Below, piece after piece: positions 6,025 to 11,955 of a stretch of DNA of 64,000 nt. The position numbers were made by a program, and so were the translations under genes. A model generated the notes under the pieces. That model searched no databases. It worked only from the letters and a program-made list of their open reading frames with translations, and was not told the DNA's origin. How positions within the stretch are numbered: the first letter of the stretch is position 1; every line of letters starts with the position of its first letter. The stretch lies in NCBI GenBank assembly GCA_044225365.1, contig JBGAIQ010000004.1:1-64000 (forward strand). The letters run 5' to 3'. Source of the stretch: Planctomycetota bacterium. Lineage in GTDB: Bacteria > Planctomycetota > B15-G4 > JADJEK01.

Positions 6025-6070
6025 AACGAACGCGTGCGGTCGCTCACAGGGGCCACACGCGTTCTTGTTT
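6025..6070 (+). terminator. Probable intrinsic terminator
   Basis: gaacgcgtg...cacgcgttc stem followed by ttgttt, just after the 6004 stop. Confidence 0.55.
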
Positions 6071-6103
6071 GCACTCCGGCATCGGGATCGAAACGATGGA
6101 GGC

Positions 6104-7030
6104 ATGAAGAAGCTCGTCGCGCTCATCTCGTCCGTCGTGCTCGCCACGCTCGCTGCCTGCAGCTCCTCGCAAACGGCGCCGCTCGTCCTCGAAACCGATT
6201 TCGGCGTCGTCGACGGCGCCGTCGCCGCGATGAAGGGCGTCGCGCTCTCGATCGATCCAAAGCTCGTGATCCACGACCTCACGCACGAGATCGAGCCCTT
6301 CAACATTTGGGAAGGCGCGTATCGCCTCGCGCAGGCGGCGCCCTTCTGGCTGAAGGACACCGTGATCGTGGCCGTCGTCGATCCCGGCGTCGGCACGTCG
6401 CGCAGCCCGATCGTCGTCCGCACGAAGTCGGGTCACCTCTTCGTCGGTCCGGACAACGGCCTCTTCACGCTCGTCGGCCGCGACCTCGGCATCGACGAGA
6501 TCCGGCGCATCGACGAACACACGCAGCTTCGTCCTGGTTCGGAGGAATCGCACACCTTCCACGGCCGCGATCTCTTCGTCTACGTCGGCGCGCGTCTCGC
6601 GAGCGGTCGGCTCGAGTTCGAGGACGTGGGCCCGCGCACCGACGAATGGGTGAAGCTCGATGTCCCCGCGCCGCGCCTCGAGACCGGGCCTTCCGGCCAT
6701 CCGATGCTCTGCGGCATCGTCACCGTGCTCGACGCGCGCTTCGGCAACGTGTGGACCAATCTCGACGAGCCGAGCGTGAAACGCCTCGGCGCCGCGCCCG
6801 GCTCCATGCTCGTGGTGCGCATCCGCAACCGCGAAGGCGTGATGTACGACGGCCGCATGCCGATGACGAACACGTTCGGCGACGTCGGTGAAGGCTTGCC
6901 GCTCGCCTACCTCAACAGCAACCTCGAACTCGCGTTCGCACTGAACCTCGGGAACTTCGCCCACGAATTCGCGATCGGCACCGGCCCGGAGTGGGCCGTT
7001 GAAATCGAACTCGCCACCGACGCTCCATGA
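6104..7030 (+). CDS. SAM hydroxide adenosyltransferase / SAM-dependent halogenase family (DUF62), lipoprotein
   Basis: TDFG, VVDPGVG, GPDNG, TFHGRDLF, DARFGNVWTN, YLNS; MKK..LAAC lipobox; RBS ggagg. Confidence 0.88.
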   Translation: MKKLVALISSVVLATLAACSSSQTAPLVLETDFGVVDGAVAAMKGVALSIDPKLVIHDLTHEIEPFNIWEGAYRLAQAAPFWLKDTVIVAVVDPGVGTSRSPIVVRTKSGHLFVGPDNGLFTLVGRDLGIDEIRRIDEHTQLRPGSEESHTFHGRDLFVYVGARLASGRLEFEDVGPRTDEWVKLDVPAPRLETGPSGHPMLCGIVTVLDARFGNVWTNLDEPSVKRLGAAPGSMLVVRIRNREGVMYDGRMPMTNTFGDVGEGLPLAYLNSNLELAFALNLGNFAHEFAIGTGPEWAVEIELATDAP

Positions 7031-8613: not shown

Positions 8614-8645
8614 GAAGAAGGGGGCTTCGCTCGAGCGAAGCCCCC
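8614..8645 (-). terminator. Intrinsic terminator (perfect 26-bp palindrome), probably bidirectional
   Basis: gggggcttcgc-tcga-gcgaagccccc at 8620-8645, with ttcttc following on the minus strand; lies between convergent genes. Confidence 0.7.
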
Positions 8646-8869: not shown

Positions 8870-9946
8870 TCAAGACGACTTCAACGCCGAACCAATCGAC
8901 AACCGCTCCATCCAGCGCGCAAAGAATCGCAGGTTGTGGATCGTGAGCAGGCGATCGGCGAGCGGCTCCTCGACTTCGCGCAGATGACGCAGTAACGCCA
9001 GCGAAGCCGTCCGGCAGCAGCGGGCATCACAGGTCGGATCGATCGGGACATCGCTCCGCCGGTGCTTGTCGTCGTCGACGTACAGGTAGTCGAAACCGCG
9101 AGCATTCGTCTCGAACCGATAGGCGCGACCGCGCCGCGCATCGCGAGTGGGAAGCGTGCAGTCGAAGATGGAGTAACCCGCCGCGACGCACGCGACGATC
9201 GAATCGGGACGCCCGATCCCGAGCCCCCACAACGGAGCCCCGTCCGGCGCGATCTGCGGCAAGCGCAATACGGCATCGACGAGATCGCCGTCCTCACCGA
9301 TCGGCCAGCCGCCGAACCCGAACGCCCGGAAGCCGAGCTCGTGCATGCGCTCGATGCACTTGCGGCGCAGGTCGTCGTGCGGCCCGCCCTGCACCACGCC
9401 GAAGAGCAATGGCGCCCGACCGGTCGCGTCGCGCAATCGCGCATACTCCTCCGCGCTGCGTTCGGCCCACTCCAACGTATGGGCGACGCTCACCTCGTGA
9501 TCCTCGCGCGACGCGGAACCGTGCGCGCAGTGGTCGAGCGCGACGATGCCGTCGCCGCCGAGCTTGAATTGATGCTGGATGCTCTTCTCCGGCGTGAGCA
9601 GATGCGCGTCGGGCTCGCCCTTGCGTTTGAACCGCAGGCCCTTGTTCGCGATCGACACGCTCCAGTCCTTCTGCTCCGCGAGCGACAGGATCTGGAAGCC
9701 GCCCGAGTCGGAGAAGATCACCGACGACAGTCCGGAGAACGCGCGGATCCCGCGATCGCGATCGAAGACCTCCATGCCCGGCGCACGCGACAGATGGAAC
9801 GAGTTCACGCACACCGCCGCGATCCCCGTCGCGACGAGATCGTCGCCGTCGATGCAGCGCACGACGCCGCGCGTCGCGTCCGGAAGGAACGCGGGCAGCT
9901 TCAAGGTGCGCTCGCCGAAGACGAGTTCGTGCGGTGCGTCACTCAC
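8870..9946 (-). CDS. tgt: tRNA-guanine transglycosylase family protein (divergent TGT paralogue)
   Basis: DSGGFQ, LDHC, GVVQGG, FGGWP, LGIG, FDCTLPTRDARRG, CDARCC..HNLRFF; GTG start overlaps the upstream stop (GTGA). Confidence 0.88.
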   Translation of the reverse strand: MSDAPHELVFGERTLKLPAFLPDATRGVVRCIDGDDLVATGIAAVCVNSFHLSRAPGMEVFDRDRGIRAFSGLSSVIFSDSGGFQILSLAEQKDWSVSIANKGLRFKRKGEPDAHLLTPEKSIQHQFKLGGDGIVALDHCAHGSASREDHEVSVAHTLEWAERSAEEYARLRDATGRAPLLFGVVQGGPHDDLRRKCIERMHELGFRAFGFGGWPIGEDGDLVDAVLRLPQIAPDGAPLWGLGIGRPDSIVACVAAGYSIFDCTLPTRDARRGRAYRFETNARGFDYLYVDDDKHRRSDVPIDPTCDARCCRTASLALLRHLREVEEPLADRLLTIHNLRFFARWMERLSIGSALKSS

Positions 9947-10791
9947 GACGGAGCCCCGGTCGTTGTGGATTCGAGTGAGACGACGTAGAAGACCTCGCTC
10001 GCGAACTCGAGCTTCCGCGCGATCGGATGTTGCGGCTCCACGGCGGTGCGAATCCACTCGTCGTAGTGCTCGCGCATGCCCTTCTCGCGACCCGTGAGGC
10101 TTCGAGTCGGGAACGAGAGTACGGCGTGCGAGCAACCAGCGGCTCGAAGACGCGTCAACAGTCGCGAGGTCGCTCCGTCCTCCTGGCGTTCGAGACACGG
10201 CGCGGCCTTGAACAACCACGCGACGGAACCCGAGGGTCCGGCGAACTCGAACTCCTCGGTGAGGACATCACCGCACGCGGCTTCGCCACCACAGCGAAGT
10301 CCGGCGAGCCAGAGGTTCGCGAGGTGCGCCACGCGGCCGTCGATGTCGATCGCGCGATACCGGACTCCCGCGGGCAGAGCCATCCACGGCCACGCGAACG
10401 CATTGGCTCCGCCGCACAGATCGAAAACACATCGGAGATTCGGCAGCGTCGCACTCAGCGCGGAATAGACCTCGGCCATCGACTCCATGCGCTCCGCCGT
10501 CGAGGCGTGCAGCGACAATGCCCGCACCGCGAACTCACGGATGGCCGTCTCCGATTCGAAGTCGAGCGTCGCGAGTTCGCGCTCGATTCTCAGGAGATCC
10601 GGATCGCGGTACGCGCCGGACCACTGATGCAGCTTCTCTCGCGCGTAATGCACCGCGTCCGCGAGACGCTTGGGGCGCGTGCGCAACGCCGCGTCCGCCG
10701 CGCGGGCGAGCGCGCCGTGCGCGAGGGCTCCGTACTTTCGAGTCGAGCGCAGCTCCGCGACGATGGCTGCGCTCTCGATCACGGAGCTCAT
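9943..10791 (-). CDS. ArmA/Rmt (FmrO/Sgm) family 16S rRNA (guanine(1405)-N7)-methyltransferase
   Basis: HASTAERM, DLCGGANAFAWPW, AIDID, FKAAPCLERQE, VLSFPTRSLTGREKGMREHY match the family blocks HxSTxER, DxxCGxNP, LKxxPxLExQ, SFPxxSLxGRxKGM. Confidence 0.88.
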   Translation of the reverse strand: MSSVIESAAIVAELRSTRKYGALAHGALARAADAALRTRPKRLADAVHYAREKLHQWSGAYRDPDLLRIERELATLDFESETAIREFAVRALSLHASTAERMESMAEVYSALSATLPNLRCVFDLCGGANAFAWPWMALPAGVRYRAIDIDGRVAHLANLWLAGLRCGGEAACGDVLTEEFEFAGPSGSVAWLFKAAPCLERQEDGATSRLLTRLRAAGCSHAVLSFPTRSLTGREKGMREHYDEWIRTAVEPQHPIARKLEFASEVFYVVSLESTTTGAPS

Positions 10792-10797
10792 GTCGCG

Positions 10798-11955
10798 TCA
10801 CTGGATATGCATGCGAAGCGGCGCGGTCGATGCGACACCGCCACCGGCGCCGGGATCGGCGACGAGGACCTGGACGAACACGTCGAAGGTCGGCAGGTTC
10901 GAAGGTAGAGAGGCCGGCAGCGGCAGGAACCCGTTGCCCGGCCCCGCTCCGAAGATCGGCAATGTGAAGATGAGCTGCGGCAGGATCGGCATCACCTGCA
11001 GCGCGCACGACGGAACGACGTTCGCCGTGCCCTGACCGAGGCCGACGAAGAGCACGCCCTGCGTGCCACCAAGAGCGTTCGCGATGTTGAGCGTGAAGGA
11101 CTGTCCCGGATTCGGCGTGCCGCTGCCCGTGAGCGTCGGCGTGAACGCGCCGCTGCCCGGACAACCGTGCCCATAGCTCTGGAAGAACGATGGCCCGTTC
11201 ACCCAGGCCATCCCCTTCGCGAGATGGTCCATGATTCCGATCGTCGTCACCACGCCGCTCGTCGACACCGACACGAATTGCTGCGCGAAGTCCTGCGAGA
11301 GAAGCGTTCCCGCGTCCTTGCGCGTGAGGCACAGCAAGCCGATCGGCGCGTAGGCGCCGGAGAGCGTCACGGGCTGGATGGCGAGTGTCGTCGGATCCAC
11401 GGTTTCGAGGATCGTGCCGAACACGAGATCGTTGATCACGCCGTTGCCCGAGGCGTGATAGAGCTGGCCGTCGAACGGATTGAACGCGAGCGTCTCGCCC
11501 GCCCCGCCGTTCCCGAGCGGCGTCACGAGCGTGATCGCGGCCGTCGCCTTGTCGATCTTGTACAGCGCTTCGGAGACGATTCCGCCGTCGCCCGATACGC
11601 CCCACATCTGGCCGGTCGAATCGAACGCGATGCCGGCGAACTTTTCCAAGGTGTCGCCGAGATCGACGCAGACACCCGTCGCAGGATCGATCTTCAGGAG
11701 TTCCTTCGTCGTGCCGCCGAAGACGGAGACGACGGCATAGAGCGCGCCATCCGTGGGATCGGTCGCGAGCCCCGAACCCTGGAGGACCGGACCTCCGCCG
11801 GGGATCGTGAGCGTGACTTGGGAGAGCGTCGCCCCGGTCGAAGGATCGATCGTGCGCAGTTGGTCATCCGACGGCGCGACCGTGACGAGTTGCGGGACCT
11901 GTGCGTGGAGCGTCGACGCCGCGAAGATCGCGGTGAGGAGCAGGGGGAACTTCAT
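10798..11955 (-). CDS. Secreted beta-propeller protein with shared C-terminal domain
   Basis: Signal peptide ..LHA/Q; repeats of GLATDP..LYAV..LLKIDPATG; YGHGCPG..APLRMHIQ tail. Confidence 0.75.
   Translation of the reverse strand: MKFPLLLTAIFAASTLHAQVPQLVTVAPSDDQLRTIDPSTGATLSQVTLTIPGGGPVLQGSGLATDPTDGALYAVVSVFGGTTKELLKIDPATGVCVDLGDTLEKFAGIAFDSTGQMWGVSGDGGIVSEALYKIDKATAAITLVTPLGNGGAGETLAFNPFDGQLYHASGNGVINDLVFGTILETVDPTTLAIQPVTLSGAYAPIGLLCLTRKDAGTLLSQDFAQQFVSVSTSGVVTTIGIMDHLAKGMAWVNGPSFFQSYGHGCPGSGAFTPTLTGSGTPNPGQSFTLNIANALGGTQGVLFVGLGQGTANVVPSCALQVMPILPQLIFTLPIFGAGPGNGFLPLPASLPSNLPTFDVFVQVLVADPGAGGGVASTAPLRMHIQ

Follow-up and report, generated by a model that had tools for sequence, protein, structure and literature searches.

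Acquired 16S rRNA methyltransferases confer pan-aminoglycoside resistance on pathogens and, to our knowledge, are still regarded as enzymes of unknown natural origin. On plasmids and ICEs of Enterobacterales and Pseudomonas, the genes rmtD, rmtG, rmtE and rmtB2 occur in arrays with a tRNA-guanine transglycosylase (TGT) gene, in the order tgt then rmt, on one strand and often overlapping, with IS91, IS26 and Tn3-type elements as flanks. This adjacency is already in print, in passages of PMC3904158 and PMC8446631, and the review PMC9311965, in an excerpt citing Passarelli-Araujo 2019, gives an rsmH-tgt-rmtG-rsmL operon; in the portions of the open-access literature available, we found no paper that describes the wider conservation of the pair. 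Here, a pair of the same two families was analysed in a stretch of 64,000 nucleotides (the window; positions 1 to 64,000 of contig JBGAIQ010000004.1) from a Planctomycetota bacterium. As in the plasmid arrays, both genes lie on one strand and overlap, but their order is rmt then tgt, and no such flanking elements accompany them.

Gene pair and its surroundings

The first gene of the pair, on the reverse strand at 9943..10791, encodes an Rmt/FmrO-family 16S rRNA methyltransferase of predicted m7G1405 type (P0001, 282 aa), its ORF running from an ATG start at 10791 to a TGA stop at 9945-9943. The second, on the same strand at 8870..9946, encodes a variant TGT of the 'PDAT/GGWP' clade (P0002, 358 aa), the third TGT copy of the genome. 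Two observations favour the GTG at 9946-9944 as its start: residue 11 is the first in the Pfam TGT match, and the N-terminal part aligns with homologues; a longer start at 10219, among the ORF candidates, found no support. Reading of the window sequence confirmed what an earlier note on this DNA had claimed, namely that the rmt TGA overlaps the GTG of the TGT-family gene: the two share the 4 nt GTGA at 9943..9946 on the reverse strand, which suggests translational coupling.

Upstream of rmt, on the same strand and after a 6 nt gap, lies an ORF of 385 aa with a weak DUF4394-like match (10798..11955). It is possibly co-transcribed with the pair and is outside the conserved module; two genomes of genus g4 (G003 and G008), when examined, showed no such ORF next to their rmt-tgt loci. 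A promoter scan at the locus returned no sigma-70-like site, and a terminator-like hairpin on the reverse strand at 8620..8645, about 225 nt 3' of the tgt stop, is weak, with 1 site found versus 1.4 expected in shuffles.

Between 3.6 and 14.7 kb of the window, the neighbours of the pair encode an esterase, a SAM hydroxide adenosyltransferase, the weak DUF4394-like protein, an S9 peptidase and one family-less protein, and GC is even at 0.64-0.67. The earlier observation that no mobile element or aminoglycoside genes lie nearby holds for this interval. No rsmH or rsmI gene occurs within ~5 kb of the pair; the window carries the two-gene core only, whereas RsmH-RsmI (m4Cm1402) genes enclose the pair in other genomes. 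Of the family relatives, only those of genus g4 yielded an orthologue of the esterase that flanks the pair, located on short contigs that carry neither tgt nor rmt, and the window's flanking genes are absent beside the rmt-tgt loci of those genus-g4 genomes, where the shortness of the contigs makes synteny uninformative. Rfam searches at the gathering cut-off gave no riboswitch or other RNA matches near 18 loci.

The methyltransferase

P0001 matched the Pfam FmrO family with 111.6 bits (cut-off 27) over profile positions 2-233 of 255. Against the NCBIfam Rmt_gen model it scored 157.1 bits, under the equivalog cut-off of 250, and against the named NCBIfam Rmt B-H models 49-81 bits, where the cut-offs are 500-550. 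By these profile scores, P0001 is a distant member of the Rmt family and none of the named clinical types. The closest solved structure is that of Sgm (3LCU, 107 bits), and a single-protein search of the genome contigs detected no near relatives of the Rmt protein.

For RmtC, the accessible part of PMC10288597 assigns roles in 30S docking, in h44 distortion and G1405 flipping, and in catalysis to K20, Y21, R50, H54, Y60, S107, D160, K204, R211, K236, R241 and M245. When P0001 was aligned to these residues, all 12 were found to be kept, 11 as identical residues and K236 as R230; the equivalents in the same order are K19, Y20, R51, H55, Y61, S97, D149, K195, R202, R230, R235 and M239. P0001 has the FmrO fold family in common with Sgm, RmtB, RmtC and ArmA and keeps the critical RmtC residues, but differs from these enzymes in its chromosomal location, which has no producer gene cluster in its vicinity, in scoring under the Rmt cut-off and in an unusual SAM motif I (DLCGGAN versus DLACGLNP in relatives).

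The variant tRNA-guanine transglycosylase

P0002 scored 245.6 bits against Pfam TGT (cut-off 26.3) and 241.4 bits against the NCBIfam Tgt model TIGR00430, under the equivalog cut-off of 306.75. A check for a separate canonical tgt, as the earlier note had proposed, revealed two such genes in the genome; their Pfam TGT scores are 522 and 457 bits, compared to 245 for P0002. Assignment of P0002 to DpdA (21 bits, cut-off 200) or to the archaeosine TGTs (ArcTGT, 70 bits, cut-off 350) was rejected. The AlphaFold2 model of P0002 has a pLDDT of 94.7, and its top fold matches are Z. mobilis TGT structures (TM 0.87, rmsd about 2 A). Catalytic D102 and D280 and guanine-binding D156, Q203 and G230 are kept in P0002 as D80, D262, D138, Q186 and G213, respectively, along with the equivalents of RNA-binding R286 and R289. 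Hence the fold, both catalytic aspartates and the guanine- and RNA-binding residues are common to P0002 and the Tgt enzymes of Z. mobilis, E. coli and T. maritima. Indeed, D102, S103, Q107, D156, G229/G230, D280, R286, R289 and H349 are invariant in 84/84 Rmt-linked, 16/16 sister-clade and 41/41 canonical sequences. Three of the four zinc ligands (Cys318, Cys320, Cys323 and His349) are kept in P0002, the corresponding residues being C306, A308, C311 and H337. The change of C320 to A is found in P0002 alone among the 84 (1/84), with C320 kept in 81/84 clade members; a neighbouring C310 could act as a substitute ligand.

The canonical TGT pocket features a Leu231/Ala232 peptide switch with Glu235. 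In P0002 the pocket motif is GGWPIGE in place of the canonical GGL(A/S)VGE, and in the Rmt-linked clade L231 is changed to W in 78/84 sequences and A/S232 to P in 84/84, while G234 and E235, invariant in 41/41 canonical enzymes, are mostly gone. V45 is changed to D in 82/84 Rmt-linked TGTs, and the clade has PDAT in place of PVGT. C158 is kept in 84/84, and position 233 is still bulky (L/V/I). With its base pocket altered by W231, P232, the loss of G234/E235 and V45D, the variant may differ in base or RNA specificity. P0002 also departs from canonical Tgt in M260 changed to L, in an insert of ~14 residues between R289 and C318 and in having ~20 fewer C-terminal residues, and the variant forms a separate starred clade in the TGT tree. 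According to the accessible text of PMC11570991, GGLAVG is the motif of preQ1-type TGTs and GG[LS][AS]G that of queuine-salvaging TGTs; the motif of the variant differs from the latter, and a queuine-type pocket was rejected.

Conservation of the pair

In the TGT tree, P0002 belongs to the starred Rmt-linked clade of 34 rows (SH-aLRT 96), with L009 and L015 as its nearest rows. It displays the marks of the clade, having the PDAT and GG(W/F/Y)P signatures and, as its same-strand neighbour, an FmrO gene. FmrO was present in the locus for 33/34 members. Across the genomes of 61 relatives, 13 have both the variant TGT and FmrO and 48 have neither, a co-occurrence far beyond chance, and the variant adjoins FmrO in all 12 relatives with FmrO.

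The pairing is also conserved beyond these relatives, as a neighbourhood survey and a co-phylogeny check, both suggested earlier for this locus, demonstrated. Two locus surveys were made, each covering the best 80 of >450-598 matches; at 66 of the best 80 FmrO loci, from many phyla, the variant TGT gene lies alongside on the same strand. Flexilinea flocculi TC1 (L183) and Microtetraspora sp. NBRC 13810 (L049) are among the carriers and are in culture. The TGT and Rmt distance matrices, compared over 88 pairs, correlate with r = 0.82 (permutation maximum 0.11). Gene overlaps of 4-20 nt were predicted, from heuristic start calls, in 22/34 and 39/66 pairs. Adjacency is kept in both gene orders, with a 4-nt overlap in the window and L009 and with gaps in L032, L151 and L165. 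Two word-based searches for longer proteins returned no TGT-FmrO fusion, which is weak evidence, the one match being a 572-aa FmrO-alone protein; nor did any single ORF in ~180 loci hold both domains. A complex prediction for P0001 and P0002 gave a score of 0.00 with no answer returned, and is evidence neither way.

Either gene is sometimes found alone, and the coupling is not obligatory: of five genomes in which FmrO has no adjacent TGT, three have no variant TGT at all and two keep it unlinked. The spread among relatives is patchy (5/11 genomes of the same family, 6/8 of family f4 and 0/16 of f3). This patchiness would fit a cassette whose two genes stay joined through shared history and translational coupling, and in which selection acts on the methylase through aminoglycoside insensitivity and tgt is a redundant passenger; so would the local gene context, which differs from that of relatives, the canonical tgt already present, and the fact that IS91/ISCR elements took tgt along with rmt onto plasmids. 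A passenger would be expected to decay, yet the catalytic residues are invariant in 84/84 sequences, and conservation is higher in the TGT than in the methylase (mean pairwise identity of 49% versus 36%). Moreover, adjacency has outlasted gene-order inversion, and the variant persists in the two genomes where it is unlinked from FmrO. We regard the passenger explanation as rather improbable.

Queuosine and rRNA methylase genes near the pair

The variant-clade TGT is the sole TGT in 5/5 Patescibacteria genomes. Outside the relatives, 3/15 Rmt-carrying genomes (G069, G071 and G085) yielded no other TGT, the other 12 having a canonical tgt copy as well. QueA, whose substrate is preQ1-tRNA, was found in G069, G071 and G061, and QueC in G069 and G061. 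In Microtetraspora, the Rmt-linked enzyme is the only TGT and is encoded in a queF-tgt-queC-queE-queD cluster for preQ1 synthesis, with QueA also present, and a Falkowbacteria MAG has a queA-queH-tgt cluster with a variant-clade TGT. The presence of the variant clade as sole TGT and in queuosine-gene clusters points to ordinary tRNA queuosine chemistry. The earlier proposal that both enzymes may serve a single pathway for building or salvaging a 7-modified guanine is not supported in that form, because clade TGTs stand alone in genomes with QueA/QueC and reside in que clusters, and because the two genes also occur apart.

Two genomes are consistent with a different role, in which the variant would be a salvage-type TGT that inserts another base (queuine, preQ0 or another 7-deazaguanine) and is tied to Rmt only in its regulation. 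In an Actinomycetota MAG, a queuosine-salvage (DUF2419) gene lies divergently beside the variant TGT gene and QueC was not found in the genome, and in a curated 0.9-Mb WWE3 genome the variant is the sole TGT and searches found no QueA or QueC; the changed base pocket would agree with such a role. However, the pocket motif is unlike that given for queuine-salvaging TGTs in the accessible text of PMC11570991, C158 and the bulky position 233 are retained, and full preQ1 pathways lie beside the variant in other carriers, so that we consider salvage improbable.

Genes for modifiers of the decoding site are also found near the pair. RsmH and RsmI act at C1402 of this site (m4Cm1402); an RsmH gene lies immediately upstream of the pair in 6 loci, RsmI-type genes flank it in 6 + 23 loci, and RsmB/F genes do so in 3 + 1 loci. 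Clostridia have the order RsmH-TGT-Rmt-RsmI, Chloroflexota and others have RsmI-TGT-Rmt, and some operons hold a second FmrO copy or RsmF-like genes together with the pair. This position in mid-operon, among modifiers of 16S nucleotides 1402-1407 (RsmH, RsmI, Rmt, the second FmrO and RsmF-like proteins), argues for a new, Rmt-tied target of the variant TGT, which might be a guanine in 16S helix 44 or m7G itself, the two enzymes then forming one guanine-7 pathway. The same is suggested by the occurrence of the variant exactly in FmrO-carrying relatives, all of which already have a canonical tgt, by the changes in the pocket that reads the 7-position and in the ribose pocket (V45D), and by the TGT being the more conserved partner. 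On the other hand, the same signatures are present in an Rmt-less sister clade, there as the sole TGT of tiny genomes; the Microtetraspora enzyme, although Rmt-linked, sits in a preQ1 synthesis cluster as the only TGT; RNA-contacting R286 and R289 are invariant; and FmrO occurs without the variant in 3/5 unlinked cases. We also know of no 7-deazaguanine in rRNA, which counts against such a target. On balance we judge an rRNA target unlikely. In its boldest form, the variant TGT would be the first base-exchange enzyme to act on the ribosome, remodelling guanines of 16S helix 44 together with Rmt, RsmH and RsmI by inserting 7-deazaguanine or acting on m7G, which appears rather improbable.

Proposed function of the pair

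The explanation we favour, which we judge about as likely as not, is that the pair constitutes a co-translated decoding-site module, placing m7G1405 on 16S rRNA and a 7-deazaguanine at tRNA G34. P0001 would be an active SAM-dependent methyltransferase of the Rmt/Sgm type. Its product is most likely m7G1405 in helix 44, a built-in modification that would render the ribosome insensitive to 4,6-disubstituted aminoglycosides as well. P0002, a member of a TGT clade that is both deep and distinct, is predicted to be an active transglycosylase; most likely it exchanges G34 of GUN-anticodon tRNAs for preQ1 and feeds QueA as ordinary Tgt does. Both modifications would meet in the decoding centre and hence be needed jointly and in step, and we propose that this is why the two genes remain side by side and often overlap. 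In V. cholerae, as stated in the accessible part of PMC11703503, tgt is needed for optimal growth under sub-lethal aminoglycoside. If P0002 made only Q-tRNA, it would duplicate the two canonical tgt genes, and its strict co-occurrence with FmrO would then be without clear reason. The altered pocket, the NCBIfam scores below cut-off, the odd SAM motif I, the lost C320 and the cases of FmrO without a linked variant TGT weigh against the decoding-site module.

In many uncultured lineages, m7G1405 is probably a regular modification built into the rRNA. A TGT clade that stands apart from canonical Tgt and has a changed base pocket, known from sequence, has been defined. At stake is either a functional coupling of queuosine and m7G1405 at the decoding centre or a transglycosylase with an rRNA target. 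Were the latter true, the tgt beside clinical rmtB, rmtD, rmtE and rmtG would be a second, overlooked determinant of the ribosome's response to aminoglycosides.

Relation to the clinical tgt-rmt arrays

The best plasmid matches of P0002 are the products of tgt genes beside rmtG, rmtB2, rmtD2 and rmtE2, with identities of 38-42% compared to 32-34% for ordinary tgt, and these plasmid genes share the PDAT and GG(W/F)P signatures and the TGT clade of P0002. The earlier view of the window pair as a native chromosomal version of the clinical pairing is therefore supported. The 'tRNA ribosyltransferase' noted beside rmtD, rmtG, rmtE and rmtB2 is no random neighbour but one partner in a two-gene unit that is old and widely conserved. 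The window Rmt is 25-35% identical to the plasmid Rmts, and in the TGT tree the plasmid modules nest within a Bacillota clade; at such low identity and with the modules elsewhere in the tree, the window lineage was rejected as a direct source of clinical rmt. The idea that loci of this kind form a reservoir for clinical rmt genes finds partial support: a Clostridia MAG has 85% DNA identity to the rmtD2 context, but the window pair is distant from the plasmid genes. On plasmids, tgt and rmt were captured jointly by IS91/ISCR elements, and their surroundings there are pieces of a chromosomal operon with the order RsmH-TGT-Rmt-RsmI, such as occurs in Clostridia.

An overlapping methyltransferase-TGT gene pair on the minus strand

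The Rmt-like ORF (282 aa) runs on the minus strand from an ATG at 10791 to a TGA at 9945-9943, and the TGT-like ORF (358 aa) from a GTG at 9946-9944 to its end at 8870. Read from the sequence, the two ORFs have the four bases GTGA in common, which bears out the overlap of the Rmt stop with the TGT start described in the earlier note. Judged from the sequence, this GTG is the correct TGT start, because the Pfam match sets in at residue 11 and homologues can be aligned with the N-terminus. The Rmt scored 111.6 bits against Pfam FmrO and 157 bits against NCBIfam Rmt_gen (below the cut-off of 250), and the TGT 245.6 bits against Pfam TGT and 241 bits against TIGR00430 (below the cut-off of 306.75). 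A same-strand ORF upstream of rmt ends 6 nt ahead of the rmt start, and GC is even across the locus, at 0.64-0.67. Across 3.6-14.7 kb the flanks encode an esterase, a SAM hydroxide adenosyltransferase, a protein with a weak DUF4394-like match, an S9 peptidase and a further protein that belongs to no family; these neighbours are all unrelated, and the earlier statement that no mobile element or aminoglycoside genes lie nearby holds for this interval. The SAM hydroxide adenosyltransferase (6065-7030, plus strand; DUF62-type, Pfam SAM_HAT_N/C) lies 1.8 kb from the rmt-tgt module and has a lipoprotein-like N-terminus.

Among solved structures, Sgm is the nearest to the window Rmt, followed by RmtB, 6PI9, RmtC and ArmA. 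Twelve RmtC residues are required for docking, h44 distortion or catalysis, according to the 30S-RmtC structure report (PMC10288597). Alignment to RmtC, with roles taken from that report, showed that all twelve are kept, 11 as identical residues (K19, Y20, R51, H55, Y61, S97, D149, K195, R202, R235 and M239) and K236 as R230. The predicted enzyme looks functional. An oddity is its SAM motif I, DLCGGAN versus DLACGLNP in relatives.

The rmt-tgt pairing is widely conserved

Among 61 genomes of the window's organism and its relatives, FmrO scored above the cut-off in 13, the window's own genome counted, and a full-length low-scoring TGT (245-325 bits) was present in exactly these 13. In 12 of 12 loci of the FmrO relatives, a same-strand TGT ORF with PDAT and GGWP motifs immediately adjoins. 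Species genomes were then surveyed from both sides, covering the best 80 of at least 598 TGT relatives and the best 80 of at least 452 Rmt relatives. In these samples, FmrO lay in the locus for 33 of the 34 members of the Rmt-linked TGT clade, and a TGT ORF, always on the same strand, in 66 of the 80 Rmt-side loci (64 upstream, 2 downstream), fractions that are biased upward because each sample consists of the top hits of queries that were themselves made from linked genes. The lone exception in the clade, locus L043, ends ~220 bp past tgt; among the 14 Rmt-side loci of the best 80 without a TGT, 5 extend less than 500 bp upstream, and the other 9 leave space for a TGT but lack one. The gene-neighbourhood survey suggested in the earlier note found the pairing conserved.

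Carriers within the two best-80 samples include Chloroflexota, Latescibacterota, Acidobacteriota, Armatimonadota, Hydrogenedentes, Gemmatimonadetes, Nitrospiraceae, Planctomycetota, Bacillota, Actinomycetota and Spirochaetaceae, among others. Overlaps of 1-20 nt were predicted, with heuristic starts, for 22 of 34 and 39 of 66 pairs in the respective best-80 samples. The gene order is tgt then rmt in almost all surveyed pairs; among the pairs listed, the reverse order is confined to the window and L009, whose genes overlap by 4 nt, and to L032, L151 and L165, whose genes are 0.7-1.2 kb apart. Over 88 pairs, the TGT and Rmt distance matrices correlate (r = 0.82; permutation maximum 0.11) and the two trees have 43 of 85 splits in common, agreements that could merely follow the species tree. 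The TGT is the more conserved partner, with a mean identity of 49% versus 36% for Rmt in these pairs.

Coupling is not obligatory: of five FmrO genomes lacking an adjoining TGT, two have the variant (PDAT/GGWP-type) TGT elsewhere and three have none. In a Caldilinea-like MAG, the whole-genome match to a GGWP-type TGT that is not linked to FmrO (L189, G081:C77:10866-11951) includes a single in-frame TAA; this could mark the end of the gene or reflect decay or a fault in the assembly. Word-based searches for longer proteins turned up no TGT-FmrO fusion, and among roughly 180 loci no ORF combined the two domains.

The linked TGT belongs to a distinct clade

The 6.5-Mb assembly of the window's genome holds three TGT-family genes and one FmrO gene. 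Two are canonical copies (L001 and L002; C8:57302-58363 and C70:2475-3542), scoring 522 and 457 bits with the motifs PAFMPVGT, GG(V/L)(S/A)VGE and CxCxxC; the remaining gene is the low-scoring one in the window (245 bits). The window's gene is thus not the sole tgt, a point on which the earlier note had wanted the genome checked. Two high-scoring TGT matches also occur in most order-level relatives, where the ordinary Tgt is likewise duplicated.

By its sequence, the window TGT is a member of a distinct clade. A quick maximum likelihood tree of 97 TGTs (IQ-TREE, LG+G4) separated a canonical clade of 43 rows, which holds both other copies of the genome and has FmrO nearby in none, from a non-canonical clade of 54 rows (SH-aLRT 98). 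We compared residues across 84 Rmt-linked, 16 sister-clade and 41 canonical sequences, using Z. mobilis numbering via PDB alignment. D102, S103, Q107, D156, G229, G230, D280, R286, R289 and H349 are invariant across all three groups, and Q203 and the zinc cysteines almost so. This invariance of catalytic residues makes it unlikely that the pair is purely a hitch-hiking cassette. Compared with canonical Tgt, V45 is replaced by D in 82/84 Rmt-linked and 16/16 sister-clade sequences; L231 is replaced by W in 78/84 and A/S232 by P in 84/84 Rmt-linked TGTs. The Rmt-linked and sister clades have mostly lost G234 and E235, which never vary in canonical Tgt, and are also set apart by M260 to L, by an insert between R289 and C318 (median 14 residues), and by ~20 fewer residues after H349. 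Unlike most clade members, the window TGT retains G234-E235 (GGWPIGE); it is also the only one of the 84 with Ala at the second zinc cysteine, C320 (A308), and has an extra cysteine, C310, just ahead of C323 (codons 306-311 and 337; 8948-9031). The fold that AlphaFold2 predicts for it (pLDDT 94.7) resembles that of Z. mobilis TGT, with a TM score of 0.87.

All five Patescibacteria genomes examined have the variant as their sole TGT. Of 15 genomes that carry Rmt and fall outside the group of relatives, 12 also encode a canonical TGT, and the variant alone was found in three (G069, G071 and G085; two are MAGs). G069 and a Shapirobacteria genome encode both QueC and QueA, whose substrate is preQ1-tRNA, and QueA is also present in G071; neither was found when looked for in a curated WWE3 genome. 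Since some sole-TGT genomes encode QueA, the simplest reading is that the variant clade is predicted to perform ordinary G34 exchange.

Neighbouring genes and a proposed role for the module

In the TGT-side loci, the Clostridia unit is RsmH-TGT-Rmt-RsmI; 6 loci have RsmH immediately upstream, 4 have an RsmI-type gene downstream, and in L028 and L059 RsmI is upstream. Examples of these RsmH and RsmI neighbours that were checked exceed the NCBIfam equivalog cut-offs. Among 65 Rmt-side loci with both genes (from the best 80 of at least 452), the ORF adjoining TGT is RsmI-type in 19, and that following Rmt is a second FmrO in 18, RsmI-type in 4 and RsmB/F-like in 3. The tandem second FmrO, directly downstream of the first, occurs mostly in Anaerolineae (L128, L129, L131, L133, L136, L143, L150, L157, L163, L166, L168, L171, L173, L174, L176, L179, L180 and L183); the one checked reached 167 bits against NCBIfam Rmt_gen, short of the cut-off. 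Queuosine genes also adjoin the TGT: queF-TGT-queC-queE-queD in Microtetraspora, with FmrO 3.4 kb off past an IS4 element; a queuosine-salvage gene in an Actinomycetota MAG; and queA-queH-TGT in a Falkowbacteria MAG. A small radical-SAM gene immediately precedes TGT-Rmt in loci of Latescibacterota and Gemmatimonadetes (L044:2004-2756, L106:967-1785 and L140:974-1849); it is QueE-like and below family cut-offs (~100 bits versus QueE cut-offs of 200-300).

We propose, as the best-supported reading and one with about an even chance of being right, that the pair is a co-translated module with two predicted products: Rmt would form m7G1405 in 16S rRNA, the variant TGT would place a 7-deazaguanine at the tRNA wobble position, and both modifications would meet in the decoding centre. 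Synergy between them is plausible given that tgt of V. cholerae is reported to be linked to growth under sub-lethal aminoglycoside (PMC11703503). That the variant TGT instead acts on rRNA or on m7G seems rather improbable; this idea stays alive because the variant is kept only alongside FmrO in genomes already with canonical tgt, the pocket residues reading the 7-position are altered, and the gene is placed among helix-44 methylases, none of which is explained by the co-translated module.

Plasmid-borne rmt genes point to a probable Clostridia-like source

The best plasmid matches of the window TGT are the tgt genes adjoining rmtG, rmtB2, rmtD2 and rmtE2 (38-42% identity, versus 32-34% for housekeeping tgt). 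All four contexts, including rsmH-tgt-rmtG-truncated methyltransferase and tgt-metallophosphoesterase-rmtB2, lie amid IS91, IS26 and Tn3 elements. Plasmid tgt/rmt adjacency has been published (PMC3904158, PMC8446631 and PMC9311965). Searches of the open-access literature turned up such adjacency solely in passing mentions of plasmid contexts, and no account of the pairing's wide conservation, the distinct TGT clade or a Clostridia-type source operon.

In the TGT tree, the plasmid tgt genes, those linked to rmtG and rmtB2 included, fall inside a Bacillota clade. Furthermore, a chromosomal rsmH-tgt-rmt stretch of an uncultured Clostridia MAG (L029:3593-5839) matches the rmtD2 plasmid (L007:4596-6858) at 85.3% over 2,272 nt, with amino acid identities of 91.7% for TGT and 81.8% for Rmt. 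Together, this match and the nesting among Bacillota point to Clostridia-like bacteria as the probable kind of source of the mobile tgt-rmt modules. The suggestion in the earlier note that such loci could be a reservoir for clinical rmt genes is partly supported, and the tree and identities rule out the window's own lineage as the direct source of these plasmid genes.

The rmtE2-linked tgt (L008:5055-5753) lacks its first ~115 codons, at the 5' end, beside an IS91-family transposase, and what follows rmtG is a fragment of 98 aa with the annotation SAM-dependent methyltransferase (L005:6839-7135), in the position that RsmI takes after Rmt in Clostridia. These two truncated genes fit the putative capture of part of a longer operon.
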